Notes: a model not told the origin generated them from the letters alone. DNA of 64,000 nt from Escherichia coli (GCF_003018255.1 NZ_CP027440.1); one strand, 5' to 3'; shown: positions 3,132 through 57,314, counted from the stretch's first letter. Numbers and translations are program-made.

Positions 3132-5074
3132 CGCCCTTGCTCGAATTAAAGGATATTCGTCGCAGCTATCCTGCCGGTGATGAGCAGGTTGAGGTGCTGA
3201 AGGGCATCAGCCTCGATATTTATGCCGGTGAGATGGTGGCGATTGTTGGCGCTTCGGGTTCCGGTAAATCGACCCTGATGAATATTCTCGGCTGTCTGGA
3301 TAAGGCCACCAGCGGCACCTATCGCGTCGCCGGTCAGGATGTTGCCACGCTGGACGCCGATGCGCTGGCGCAACTGCGCCGCGAGCATTTCGGCTTTATT
3401 TTCCAGCGTTACCATTTGCTTTCGCATTTAACCGCCGAGCAGAACGTTGAAGTACCCGCCGTCTATGCCGGTCTTGAGCGGAAACAGCGGCTGCTTCGCG
3501 CCCAGGAGTTACTGCAACGACTGGGGCTGGAAGACCGTACAGAGTATTACCCGGCACAGCTTTCGGGTGGCCAGCAACAGCGCGTCAGCATCGCGCGGGC
3601 ATTGATGAACGGCGGTCAGGTAATTCTTGCCGATGAACCGACCGGCGCACTGGACAGCCATTCTGGCGAAGAGGTGATGGCGATCCTGCATCAGCTGCGC
3701 GATCGCGGGCATACGGTGATTATCGTCACCCACGATCCGCAGGTTGCTGCTCAGGCCGAGCGGGTGATCGAAATTCGCGACGGCGAAATTGTGCGCAATC
3801 CTCCCGCCATTGAAAAAGTGAATGTTGCTGGCGGGACGGAACCTGTTGTCAACACGGCGTCTGGCTGGCGGCAGTTTGTCAGCGGTTTTAACGAGGCGCT
3901 GACGATGGCATGGCGGGCGCTGGCAGCGAATAAAATGCGTACTTTACTGACCATGCTGGGGATTATTATCGGTATTGCGTCGGTGGTTTCCATTGTCGTG
4001 GTGGGTGACGCCGCCAAACAAATGGTGCTGGCGGATATTCGTTCTATTGGTACGAATACTATTGATGTCTATCCCGGGAAAGATTTTGGCGATGACGATC
4101 CGCAATATCAGCAGGCGCTGAAGTACGACGACTTAATCGCCATCCAAAAACAACCGTGGGTCGCTTCAGCCACACCTGCCGTCTCGCAAAACCTGCGCCT
4201 GCGTTATAACAATGTTGATGTTGCTGCCAGTGCCAATGGCGTGAGCGGCGATTATTTTAATGTCTATGGCATGACCTTCAGTGAAGGAAACACCTTTAAT
4301 CAGGAGCAGCTGAACGGTCGTGCGCAGGTGGTGGTGCTCGACAGTAATACTCGCCGCCAGCTTTTCCCCCATAAAGCAGATGTGGTTGGCGAGGTGATTC
4401 TGGTCGGCAATATGCCCGCCAGAGTCATTGGTGTGGCGGAAGAAAAACAGTCGATGTTTGGTAGCAGTAAAGTGCTGCGTGTCTGGCTACCTTACAGCAC
4501 GATGTCCGGGCGAGTTATGGGCCAGTCGTGGCTGAACTCCATTACTGTCAGGGTGAAAGAAGGATTTGACAGCGCTGAGGCGGAACAGCAACTCACGCGT
4601 TTACTTTCACTGCGCCACGGTAAGAAGGATTTCTTTACCTGGAACATGGACGGCGTCTTGAAAACCGTTGAAAAGACCACACGTACTTTACAACTGTTTC
4701 TGACGCTGGTGGCGGTGATTTCGCTGGTGGTGGGCGGTATTGGTGTAATGAATATTATGCTGGTGTCAGTGACCGAGCGGACGCGGGAAATTGGCATTCG
4801 CATGGCTGTAGGTGCGCGAGCAAGCGATGTTTTGCAACAGTTCCTGATCGAAGCCGTACTGGTTTGCCTGGTCGGTGGCGCGTTGGGAATAACACTGTCA
4901 CTGTTAATTGCTTTCACCTTACAGCTTTTCTTACCCGGCTGGGAGATTGGTTTTTCACCGTTGGCGCTGCTGCTGGCGTTTCTCTGCTCGACGGTCACCG
5001 GGATTTTATTTGGCTGGTTACCCGCACGAAATGCGGCACGACTGGATCCAGTAGATGCTCTGGCACGAGAGTAA
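3128..5074 (+). CDS. macB: Macrolide ABC exporter ATPase/permease MacB
   Basis: 648 aa; Walker [10 protein letters not shown] and ABC signature LSGGQQQR in translation; C-terminal FtsX-like TM region. Confidence 0.95.
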
Positions 5075-52345: not shown

Positions 52346-53271
<926 letters not shown>

Positions 53272-53424
53272 TTTCACTTCACGACACTCCAGCCAATTTT
53301 GGGAGGAGTGTCGTACCGTTACGATTTTCCTCAATTTTTCTTTTCAACAATTGATCTCATTCAGGTGACATCTTTTATATTGGCGCTCATTATGAAAGCA
53401 GTAGCTTTTATGAGGGTAATCTGA

Positions 53425-54318
53425 ATGGAACAGCTGCGTGCCGAATTAAGCCATTTACTGGGCGAAAAACTCAGTCGTATTGAGTGCGTCAATGAAAAAG
53501 CGGATACGGCGTTGTGGGCTTTGTATGACAGCCAGGGAAACCCAATGCCGTTAATGGCAAGAAGCTTTAGTACGCCCGGAAAAGCCCGACAACTGGCATG
53601 GAAAACCACCATGCTGGCAAGAAGTGGGACTGTCCGTATGCCGACTATTTATGGTGTGATGACGCATGAAGAACACCCCGGCCCCGATGTCCTGCTACTG
53701 GAGCGGATGCGTGGTGTTTCGGTGGAGGCACCAGCCCGAACACCAGAACGCTGGGAACAACTCAAAGATCAAATCGTTGAAGCCTTACTGGCCTGGCACC
53801 GTCAGGACAGTCGCGGTTGCGTCGGCGCGGTCGACAATACTCAGGAAAATTTCTGGCCCTCATGGTACCGGCAACATGTTGAAGTGCTATGGACCACGCT
53901 CAATCAGTTCAATAACACCGGTCTAACGATGCAGGATAAGCGGATCCTGTTTCGTACTCGCGAATGTCTCCCGGCATTATTTGAAGGCTTTAACGACAAT
54001 TGTGTGCTGATTCACGGTAACTTCTGTTTACGCAGCATGCTGAAAGATTCGCGCAGCGATCAGTTACTGGCGATGGTCGGGCCGGGACTAATGCTTTGGG
54101 CACCGCGGGAATACGAACTGTTCCGACTAATGGATACTTCTCTGGCGGAAGATTTGCTCTGGAGTTACCTGCAACGCGCGCCAGTGGCGGAGTCGTTCAT
54201 CTGGCGGCGTTGGTTGTATGTGTTATGGGATGAAGTTGCGCAACTGGTTAATACCGGACGATTTAGTCGGCGCAACTTCGATCTGGCATCAAAATCACTC
54301 TTGCCGTGGCTCGCCTGA
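53425..54318 (+). CDS. ycbJ: Putative phosphotransferase/kinase-like protein YcbJ
   Basis: 297 aa; synteny; 3' end overlaps elyC by 24 bp. Confidence 0.8.
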   Translation: MEQLRAELSHLLGEKLSRIECVNEKADTALWALYDSQGNPMPLMARSFSTPGKARQLAWKTTMLARSGTVRMPTIYGVMTHEEHPGPDVLLLERMRGVSVEAPARTPERWEQLKDQIVEALLAWHRQDSRGCVGAVDNTQENFWPSWYRQHVEVLWTTLNQFNNTGLTMQDKRILFRTRECLPALFEGFNDNCVLIHGNFCLRSMLKDSRSDQLLAMVGPGLMLWAPREYELFRLMDTSLAEDLLWSYLQRAPVAESFIWRRWLYVLWDEVAQLVNTGRFSRRNFDLASKSLLPWLA

Positions 54319-55074
54319 CGAACTTTTTAGCCACTGCCAGATACGGCCAAGCGTTTCATAGCCAACACGATCGCTATGCATCAACCAGACCGGAGAAGGG
54401 ATTGCCCGTTCCCACGGGTTAAGCGGCGAGTCGATGGCCAACTGATTCGCCGGGGCTGGCAGCGGATTTAACCCTTCCTGCTGAAAAAAGATCATCGCCC
54501 GCGGCAAATGAGACGCGGATGTCACCAGCAGGAAAGGGGCGTCACCAATCGCCTGTTTCACTGCCGCAGCTTCTTCTTCGGTATCTTTTGGCAAATCCAG
54601 AGTGATAATTTGCTCGCGCGGCACGCCCAGCGATTGCGCAACTCGGGCACCTACTTCGGCTGTACTCACCGTATTGGTTTTTGCTACGCCTCCCGTGAAG
54701 ATCAGTTTTGATCCCGGATTTTCGCGCCATAAGCGAATACCTTCATTCAGGCGGGGCAGACTGTTATTGATTAAATTCGAGCTTGGTGCCCACTGCGGGT
54801 TCCAGGTATAACCACCTCCGAGCACCACGATATAGTCCACTTTTTGCGAATTATTCCATGTCGGATAGGTGCTTTCGATGGGACGCAGCAGGCGGTCGGC
54901 TACCGGTTGCAAACTCAATAACAAGAGCGCCAGCCACCCAATGCTAATAAAAATCTTCCCGGTTTTTTGAAAACGGCTAAACCACAGCAGCGCCAGGCCA
55001 GCGCCAATAATCAACAACATTAGCGGAAGTGGCAGCAACATATTGCCAATCACTTTTTTCAGTGTAAAAAGCAT
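54295..55074 (-). CDS. elyC: Envelope biogenesis factor ElyC (DUF218)
   Basis: 259 aa; N-terminal TM helices; synteny. Confidence 0.8.
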   Translation of the reverse strand: MLFTLKKVIGNMLLPLPLMLLIIGAGLALLWFSRFQKTGKIFISIGWLALLLLSLQPVADRLLRPIESTYPTWNNSQKVDYIVVLGGGYTWNPQWAPSSNLINNSLPRLNEGIRLWRENPGSKLIFTGGVAKTNTVSTAEVGARVAQSLGVPREQIITLDLPKDTEEEAAAVKQAIGDAPFLLVTSASHLPRAMIFFQQEGLNPLPAPANQLAIDSPLNPWERAIPSPVWLMHSDRVGYETLGRIWQWLKSSSGEPRQE

Positions 55075-55209
55075 CCTTTCTGGTTCCTTTTTTAACCATA
55101 TAGCAAGGGATCGCCAGCGATATTACACCAGACGGGTTCATTCTCGCCGTGGCTGTGACAAAATAGCGTCTTTATCAGAAAACGTCTTAGCCAACCGGTG
55201 GAGAAAGCA

Positions 55210-55995
55210 ATGCAGGATCGCAATTTTGATGATATTGCGGAAAAGTTTTCCCGTAACATTTACGGCACCACCAAAGGGCAGCTTCGACAGGCTATTCTGT
55301 GGCAGGATCTCGATCGCGTGCTGGCGGAAATGGGCCCGCAAAAACTGCGTGTGCTGGATGCTGGCGGTGGAGAAGGGCAGACCGCAATCAAAATGGCTGA
55401 GCGCGGGCATCAGGTCATTTTATGCGATCTTTCTGCGCAGATGATCGACCGCGCAAAACAGGCGGCAGAAGCAAAAGGTGTGAGCGACAACATGCAATTT
55501 ATACATTGCGCCGCTCAGGATGTTGCTTCACATTTGGAAACGCCCGTTGATCTGATATTGTTCCATGCGGTGCTCGAGTGGGTGGCCGATCCCCGCAGCG
55601 TATTACAGACCCTGTGGTCAGTGTTGCGTCCAGGCGGTGTGTTGTCGTTAATGTTCTACAATGCGCACGGCTTGCTGATGCATAACATGGTCGCCGGGAA
55701 TTTTGATTACGTGCAGGCGGGAATGCCGAAAAAGAAAAAACGGACGCTTTCGCCAGATTATCCACGCGACCCGGCGCAGGTTTATCTGTGGCTGGAAGAA
55801 GCTGGTTGGCAAATTATGGGTAAGACAGGCGTTCGCGTGTTTCATGATTATCTGCGCGAGAAGCACCAGCAGCGCGACTGCTATGAAGCATTACTTGAAT
55901 TAGAAACGCGTTATTGCCGTCAGGAACCGTATATTACCCTGGGGCGTTATATTCATGTCACCGCGCGCAAACCGCAGAGCAAGGATAAAGTATGA
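55210..55995 (+). CDS. cmoM: tRNA cmo5U34 methyltransferase CmoM (SmtA), SAM-dependent
   Basis: 261 aa from [13 protein letters not shown]; SAM motif VLDAGGGEG; ATGA overlap with mukF. Confidence 0.85.
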
Positions 55996-57314
55996 GTGAA
56001 TTTTCCCAGACAGTCCCCGAACTGGTTGCCTGGGCCAGAAAAAATGACTTCTCCATCTCGCTGCCGGTAGACCGACTCTCTTTTCTGCTGGCGGTTGCCA
56101 CGCTGAACGGCGAGCGTCTGGATGGTGAGATGAGTGAAGGCGAGCTGGTGGATGCATTCCGCCATGTGAGTGATGCGTTTGAGCAAACCAGCGAAACCAT
56201 CGGCGTGCGCGCCAACAACGCGATCAACGACATGGTGCGTCAACGTCTGCTGAACCGCTTTACCAGCGAGCAGGCGGAAGGGAACGCAATTTACCGTCTG
56301 ACGCCGCTCGGCATCGGCATTACTGACTATTACATCCGTCAGCGCGAGTTTTCTACGCTGCGCCTTTCTATGCAGTTGTCGATTGTGGCGGGTGAGCTCA
56401 AACGCGCGGCAGATGCCGCCGAAGAGGGCGGTGATGAATTTCACTGGCACCGTAATGTTTATGCGCCACTGAAATATTCGGTAGCAGAAATTTTCGACAG
56501 TATCGACCTGACGCAACGTCTGATGGACGAACAGCAGCAGCAGGTGAAGGATGATATCGCCCAGTTGTTGAACAAAGACTGGCGGGCGGCGATTTCCAGC
56601 TGTGAATTGTTGCTTTCAGAAACTTCCGGAACGCTGCGTGAATTGCAGGATACGCTGGAAGCGGCAGGCGATAAATTGCAGGCTAATCTGTTGCGCATTC
56701 AGGATGCGACGATGACCCATGACGACCTGCATTTTGTCGATCGTCTGGTGTTCGATCTGCAGAGCAAACTCGACCGTATTATCAGTTGGGGCCAGCAATC
56801 CATAGACTTGTGGATTGGCTACGACCGCCACGTACACAAATTTATCCGTACTGCGATCGATATGGATAAAAACCGCGTCTTTGCTCAGCGGTTACGTCAG
56901 TCGGTACAAACCTATTTTGATGAGCCGTGGGCGCTAACTTATGCCAATGCCGATCGTCTGCTGGATATGCGTGACGAAGAGATGGTACTGCGCGATGAAG
57001 AAGTGACTGGGGAACTTCCTGAGGATCTGGAGTACGAAGAGTTTAACGAGATCCGCGAACAGCTGGCGGCGATCATCGAAGAACAACTTGCCGTGTACAA
57101 AACCAGACAAGTGCCGTTGGATCTTGGTCTGGTGGTACGCGAATATCTGTCACAGTATCCGCGTGCACGTCACTTTGACGTTGCGCGCATTGTTATTGAT
57201 CAGGCGGTACGTCTTGGCGTAGCGCAAGCAGATTTCACCGGACTGCCAGCGAAATGGCAGCCGATTAATGATTACGGAGCCAAGGTACAGGCGCATGTCA
57301 TCGACAAATATTGA
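55992..57314 (+). CDS. mukF: Chromosome partition protein MukF (kleisin)
   Basis: 440 aa; first gene of mukFEB. Confidence 0.95.

Follow-up and report, generated by a model that had tools for sequence, protein, structure and literature searches.

The window analysed here is a stretch of 64,000 nucleotides of Escherichia coli DNA (GCF_003018255.1, NZ_CP027440.1), in which two genes converge tail to tail. On the + strand, ycbJ encodes a YcbJ family phosphotransferase of 297 residues; on the − strand, elyC encodes the envelope biogenesis factor ElyC, a DUF218 protein of 259 residues. Both genes are found in the ORF list, RefSeq, NCBIfam and Pfam, and their 3′ ends share a short segment that is read on both strands:

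53425..54318, + strand: ycbJ CDS, with its TGA stop codon at 54316-54318
54295..55074, − strand: elyC CDS, with its TGA stop codon as the complement of TCA at 54295-54297
54295..54318, both strands: dual-coding overlap of 24 bp, in phase 123:321

Within the overlap, the + strand encodes residues S291-A297 of YcbJ followed by the stop (SLLPWLA*), while the − strand encodes residues S253-E259 of ElyC followed by the stop (SGEPRQE*). The codon boundaries of the two genes coincide, with positions 1, 2 and 3 of the ycbJ codons lying opposite positions 3, 2 and 1 of the elyC codons. That the two coding sequences share exactly these 24 bp had been proposed from the sequence of the window alone, and the proposal is exact: the two stop codons are located as listed above and RefSeq agrees. 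When checked against orthologs, both ends hold and neither protein stops earlier in the version carried by the window. The RefSeq/PGAP ends of both genes are identical in strain DETEC-S792 (100% identity over a 1.9-kb query), and the same query finds the region in 5425 of 5426 complete E. coli genomes. In the RefSeq annotation of MG1655, ycbJ (971752..972645) and elyC (972622..973401) overlap by the same 24 bp.

The NCBIfam equivalog models are matched from their first to their last position, NF007890 by YcbJ (1-297/297, E-value 2e-171) and NF007794 by ElyC (1-259/259, E-value 3e-154), so that these ends are not artefacts of ORF calling. Pfam assigns YcbJ to APH and ElyC to DUF218, homologs at E ≤ 1e-10 number 600 and 1425, respectively, and ElyC orthologs are mostly 259 residues long. 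ycbJ and elyC are thus a pair of real, conserved protein-coding genes with a true tail-to-tail overlap.

YcbJ is an uncharacterised kinase-like protein beside the lpxK-kdsB LPS genes, and ElyC regulates the metabolism of enterobacterial common antigen and of peptidoglycan precursors. In the window (52346-57314), ycbJ directly follows the LPS/Kdo genes msbA-lpxK-ycaR-kdsB and lies beside elyC, a placement that is kept even where YcbJ is only 33-44% identical (L083, L085, L087 and L088). This gene context hints at an envelope-related function of YcbJ. Other overlaps are found nearby: two co-directional ATGA start/stop overlaps of 4 bp, between ycaR and kdsB (52525-52528) and between cmoM and mukF (55992-55995), and one of 20 bp between mukF and mukE in the annotated record.

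We followed the junction across relatives by a scan with one genome per species, keeping the best 80 of 289 loci, all from Enterobacteriaceae, and locating both stop codons in each; more distant contexts were drawn from members of representative clusters. The overlap is present in about 74 of 78 Enterobacteriaceae loci (from these best 80 of 289), with a length of 24 bp and occasionally of 21 or 36 bp. The 24-bp form is by far the commonest and is found, among others, in Escherichia, Salmonella, most Citrobacter, Enterobacter, Kosakonia, Lelliottia and Leclercia, and also in Phytobacter, Pluralibacter, Trabulsiella, Atlantibacter and Superficieibacter. This conservation in many genera makes the overlap a stable and real feature.

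The other two lengths are caused by single stop-codon shifts. An overlap of 21 bp is seen in a few loci, including Salmonella enterica subsp. arizonae, Yokenella and a Dryocola/Cedecea/Buttiauxella cluster (73% identity). In most of these cases Leu292 of YcbJ is encoded by TTA or CTA, a stop codon on the opposite strand; in one of them (L075) it is YcbJ itself that is one residue shorter. The overlap of 36 bp occurs in two loci (L056 and L074, at about 3392-3406), in which the TGA stop of ycbJ has become a glycine codon and the reading frame gains four codons (GSTF) before a TAA.

In several lineages the overlap is lost. Within the Citrobacter freundii complex, ycbJ and elyC lie 35-117 bp apart in four species (L007, L018, L019 and L032), and ElyC ends there in WQWLKG[S/A/R]EH in place of the usual tail. 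The longest of these spacers (117 bp, at 1364-1480 of L007) matches an element that is dispersed through unannotated DNA, with a median of 23 sites in each E. coli genome. Judging from this distribution, the element would be a REP/BIME-like repeat whose insertion undid the overlap. A second route of loss is seen in Escherichia sp. MOD1-EC7003, in which codon 252 of elyC is TAG (L004:3392-3397), the two stop codons abut and the overlap is reduced to zero. The same TAG at codon 252 yields an ElyC of 251 residues in some E. coli/Shigella proteins (P0132-P0134). These natural 251-residue variants imply that the last eight residues of ElyC are dispensable in those lineages.

In more distant relatives, with YcbJ identity of 57% or less, the two genes are convergent neighbours without overlap, separated by gaps of 2-107 bp:

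L092: 2 bp
L090: 9 bp
L087 (Plesiomonas-like contig): 30 bp
L088: 107 bp

The genes of L090 and L092 are frameshifted or fragmented, and these two loci were used for junction spacing only. One further locus (L085, 2501-4287; YcbJ 44% identical, 61% GC) has no elyC between ycbJ and cmoM and otherwise keeps the order msbA-lpxK-ycaR-kdsB-ycbJ-cmoM-mukF. A contig that seemed to carry the 24-bp overlap at 50% identity (L091, Logan SRR18107613) was discarded because it is depleted in C on one strand: its GC content is 32% and its KSLLPWLA reads KLFLFWFV. Bisulfite-converted reads from an enterobacterial genome are the most likely source of this assembly, and artefacts of this type in protein and contig collections can imitate divergent homologs.

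The gaps in the distant relatives, set against the overlap in Enterobacteriaceae, indicate that the overlap is derived; it would have been fixed around the base of the family and has been reversed several times since. We infer that in the ancestor of Enterobacteriaceae an already tight convergent junction between ycbJ and elyC collapsed. The elyC frame would then have run on opposite the last ycbJ codons as far as the complement of the codon for Ser291 of YcbJ, where TCA reads as TGA. Convergent overlaps are generally accepted to arise by such shifts of a stop codon (PMC2174442, PMC4161906). The occurrence by chance of a short overlap in phase 123:321 is statistically unremarkable, since in-frame stops recur every 2-32 codons antisense to ycbJ and since E. 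coli has 58-75 convergent overlaps.

The two protein tails that share this DNA are conserved very differently. The C-terminus of YcbJ is kept down to homologs of 33% identity, with L292, P294 and W295 invariant in the alignment, and in the AlphaFold model of YcbJ (mean pLDDT 69) the protein closes with a helix of residues 282-296, whose pLDDT is about 88-90. The tail KSLLPWLA is thus predicted to be a conserved, helix-forming C-terminal end. The ElyC orthologs, on the other hand, are invariant up to WQWLK250 and vary over the last 8-9 residues; the AlphaFold model of ElyC, built on an alignment of 11 sequences, reaches a mean pLDDT of only 54, a poor value, and shows the last 10 residues as low-confidence coil. 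Among 37 unique sequences of the 24-bp overlap we counted about 10 YcbJ tails, half of them SLLPWLA, versus about 29 ElyC tails. Most of the variation in the ElyC tail is the complement of synonymous changes in ycbJ: CTC, CTT and CTG leucine codons of ycbJ give Glu, Lys and Gln in ElyC, and its CCG and CCC proline codons give Arg and Gly.

The constraint is also visible in the codons that are used and avoided, as counted over sequences that are phylogenetically non-independent. Ser291 of YcbJ is encoded by TCA, the codon that preserves the elyC stop, in 74 of 80 sequences (from the best 80 of 289 loci), compared with 8% of the serine codons elsewhere in ycbJ. At Leu293 and Leu296, TTA and CTA, either of which would truncate ElyC, are used in 0 of 148 cases, compared with 14.8% of the leucine codons elsewhere. 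At third codon positions (64 loci), ycbJ has an entropy of 1.18 bits outside the overlap and of 0.58 bits inside it; for elyC the two values are 1.28 and 0.39 bits. Synonymous variability is therefore at least halved within the overlap, as would be expected of a dual-coding region, although this signature is indicative only as the sequences share ancestry. The overlap would be maintained because each gene restricts the silent sites of its partner, locking the arrangement in place. Alternatively, the exact length of 24 bp in more than 20 genera and the avoidance of stop-creating leucine codons could be due to selection acting on the ElyC tail, or on the overlap as such.

From these comparisons we consider it likely that the overlap is a stable structural by-product of the loss of the spacer between ycbJ and elyC, and not a dedicated regulatory device. 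Its repeated loss in nature argues against an obligatory regulatory role. The original prediction had also stated that the two transcripts must overlap antisense, which is unavoidable by geometry: there is no spacer, and any transcript that covers one stop codon is antisense to the 3′ end of the partner. RNA-seq agrees: the 165 convergent excludons that ExcludonFinder lists for MG1655, seen in at least 50% of the 58 transcriptomes examined (NAR 2025, PMC12288877), include ycbJ-elyC by name. However, this listing is not independent evidence of regulation, since a coverage criterion flags pairs of expressed overlapping coding sequences almost by construction. The coupling of expression that the prediction envisaged is hypothetical; reciprocal or coordinated expression of ycbJ and elyC was found neither in this analysis nor in the literature examined, and any effect of the sense/antisense overlap on their expression is probably small and incidental.

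We may nevertheless wonder whether the pair is a convergent excludon, in which the overlap is kept because antisense pairing or polymerase collision makes the expression of the two genes mutually exclusive or coupled. We regard this as unlikely, although several observations fit it. Besides the presence of the pair in the 165-member list, excludon pairs taken as a class are more syntenic than other neighbouring genes and, compared with these, are co-expressed in fewer single cells (PMC12288877). The convergent arrangement of ycbJ and elyC is ancient, Enterobacteriaceae have conserved the overlap, and a deletion-phenotype study links the ycbJ and elyC mutants (2025 preprint). The same preprint, however, attributes the similarity of these mutants to the overlap, which makes the deletion of ycbJ inactivate elyC, and the published phenotypes of elyC deletion are complemented in trans by elyC. 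Validation of dsRNA with p19 was not feasible for convergent pairs (PMC12288877), and the obligatorily shared stretch is only 24 nt. In addition, natural losses have occurred by the REP-like insertion (four Citrobacter species) and by the nonsense codon (some Escherichia/Shigella), and a Rho region in ycbJ, described below, points to a low number of + strand transcripts at the junction in LB (PMC7815308). More doubtful still is the stronger form of this idea, that the near-invariant 24-bp overlap has been selected because antisense transcription makes YcbJ and ElyC reciprocally expressed, for example by temperature or envelope stress. If an excludon did operate here, it would tie the putative kinase YcbJ to the envelope biogenesis factor ElyC and would be one modest added case of antisense coupling in envelope biogenesis.

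The features near the junction that relate to termination are the following (MG1655 coordinates are converted to window coordinates by subtracting 918327):

53317, + strand: Term-seq 3′ end after kdsB (MG1655 971644; Adams et al. 2021, PMC7815308, supplementary file 1)
53793, + strand: centre of a bicyclomycin-sensitive (Rho-dependent) region inside ycbJ (MG1655 972120; Adams et al. 2021, PMC7815308, supplementary file 2)
54195..54294, − strand: C-rich, G-poor stretch directly downstream of the elyC stop, from its composition (C/G 1.67)
54232..54279, both strands: perfect 10-bp inverted repeat, GAAGTTGCGC / GCGCAACTTC, 28 nt apart, from the inverted-repeat search and folds
54299..54341, − strand: weak hairpin in the last part of elyC, with the stop and UGAUUUUGA after it, from the inverted-repeat search

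A consensus scan gave no intrinsic terminator downstream of the ycbJ or elyC stop, nor in the spacers of the non-overlapping loci L087 and L088, and Rfam gave no match at E ≤ 1 within 53200-55300. No conserved hairpin was detected at the junction by RNAalifold on 44 genera-level sequences, with almost no covariation (−1.2 kcal/mol). The hairpin at 54299..54341 has arms of 13 nt that are 85% complementary with two mismatches, a loop of 17 nt and four consecutive U after it. Across genera only its TGGCT/AGCCA core is kept, and it shows no covariation because this core is fixed by the W-L codons of ElyC and the P-W codons of YcbJ. It is at best a poor terminator-like element, and the consensus scan passed it over. 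The 10-bp repeat lies inside ycbJ, begins on the − strand 16 nt beyond the elyC stop and has no U-tract after it on either strand. The − strand segment that contains it folds better than shuffles (z = −2.9). As a conserved structure it does not stand out, as 53% of cells pair over the 44 sequences, which is the level of the shuffles (233/500), and RNAalifold gives no prediction of it; the repeat is specific to Escherichia and not conserved in other genera. A perfect 11-bp hairpin (GGAATAACCGC ... GCGGTTATTCC) without a U-tract spans the ycbJ stop and the 30-bp spacer in L087 (2030-2058), and may be a 3′-end structure in a lineage without the overlap.

We weighed whether terminators embedded in the partner genes, namely the hairpin at 54299-54341 (followed by UGAUUUUGA on the − strand) and the repeat at 54232-54279, end or stabilise the elyC and/or ycbJ transcripts and keep their overlap short and defined. 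Such terminators do occur, as intrinsic terminators within the partner are predicted for about 20% of the genes that take part in convergent overlaps in E. coli (PMC2174442) and TransTermHP gives overlapping terminators for 146 of the 165 excludons (PMC12288877). Moreover, both inverted repeats are present in E. coli and the − strand fold beats shuffles with the z value given above. Yet the scan is blank downstream of both stops, the hairpin has a long loop of 17 nt, two mismatches and only four U in a row, the repeat has no U-tract and pairs at the shuffle level, covariation is almost nil and the Term-seq 3′ ends of Adams et al. 2021 (PMC7815308) include none for about 200 nt around the junction. 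A GC-rich stem-loop followed by a U-tract after the stop and conserved, as expected of a bidirectional or embedded intrinsic terminator, is not what is found here, and this explanation is in our view quite improbable.

The prediction that neither gene has room for its own terminator stands in so far as there is no intergenic space and no terminator is evident here, but it is too strong as a general statement. A Rho-independent terminator is predicted for just 20% of the genes involved in convergent overlaps in E. coli (PMC2174442); these terminators can sit within the coding sequence of the partner, and Rho needs no intergenic space.

The nearest mapped 3′ end upstream of the junction on the + strand is the one at 53317 (PMC7815308). 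Between MG1655 972400 and 972999 the published maps give neither a Term-seq 3′ end, whose absence low expression may explain, nor a Rho region (PMC7815308), and the TERMITe supplements do not mention ycbJ or elyC. [quoted passage not shown] This points to an attenuation, inside the gene and in LB, of ycbJ transcription or of read-through from kdsB. No Rho-dependent region is listed on the − strand at the junction (PMC7815308). The C/G ratio reaches 2.25 downstream of the elyC stop (78-nt windows), compared with about 1.3-1.5 downstream of the ycbJ stop, and the stretch at 54195..54294 is compatible with a Rho loading site, a compatibility that in itself proves nothing. Taking the overlap as a structural by-product, RNA polymerase would continue past each stop into the partner gene as untranslated antisense RNA, and both transcripts would be ended diffusely inside the partner gene, most likely by Rho, the Rho-dependent region in ycbJ already limiting the + strand transcription that reaches the junction.

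Finally, the suggestion that the overlap is an annotation artefact, one protein truly ending before its annotated stop and leaving no coding overlap, could draw on the weak conservation of the final 8-9 ElyC residues, on natural ElyC variants of 251-252 residues and on the low-confidence coil modelled for the tail, but it is barely credible and already refuted by the sequence, because there is no in-frame stop ahead of 54295-54297 in the window and translation must reach the first stop, the family models reach the last residue of each protein, the position of the elyC stop is kept through the TCA at ycbJ codon 291 (74 of the 80 sequences from the best 80 of 289 loci) and YcbJ is conserved to its final residues.

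The overlap itself is already known: it is in every RefSeq annotation, in the ExcludonFinder list (PMC12288877) and in the 2025 preprint. What is new here is its distribution, its natural losses, the comparison of the two tails and the codon constraint. The arrangement also has a practical consequence. A standard-design deletion of either gene damages its partner: the Keio cassette reportedly spares no more than the final 21 nt of the ORF it targets, and as the overlap is 24 bp long, a deletion of this type removes the stop codon of the partner. The ycbJ phenotypes obtained in genome-wide screens thus need re-checking, and clean knockouts must keep 54295..54318. The locus may further serve as a textbook example of how a convergent overlap arises, is locked by mutual codon constraint and is sometimes undone by a REP insertion or a nonsense mutation.

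Three known systems can be compared with this junction. Bidirectional intrinsic terminators between convergent genes were reportedly described with SEnd-seq by Ju et al. in 2019. Like the pairs that carry them, ycbJ and elyC have almost no spacing and must stop two opposing polymerases; the GC-rich hairpin flanked by A- and U-tracts is, however, neither present nor conserved at ycbJ-elyC. With the excludons (the Listeria paradigm and the E. coli map; PMC12288877), ycbJ-elyC shares the arrangement of convergent neighbours with overlapping transcripts. [quoted passage not shown] A further likeness is with the catalogued prokaryotic convergent overlaps (PMC2174442, PMC4161906), of which 58 were counted in E. 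coli by Lillo & Krakauer (2007; PMC2174442) and 75, among 663 overlapping pairs, by Huvet & Stumpf (2014; PMC4161906). Phase 123:321 accounts for 33% of the convergent overlaps of at least 5 nt, with stop-codon mutation as the best-fitting origin (PMC2174442). The overlap of ycbJ and elyC is likewise short, in the same phase and consistent with an origin by stop-codon shift, and the two genes resemble the roughly 80% of genes in E. coli convergent overlaps that have no predicted intrinsic terminator (PMC2174442). No substantial difference separates it from the catalogued overlaps: its 24 bp exceed the 4 bp of the modal class but fall well within the normal range, and it is an ordinary member of the several dozen convergent overlaps of E. 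coli.
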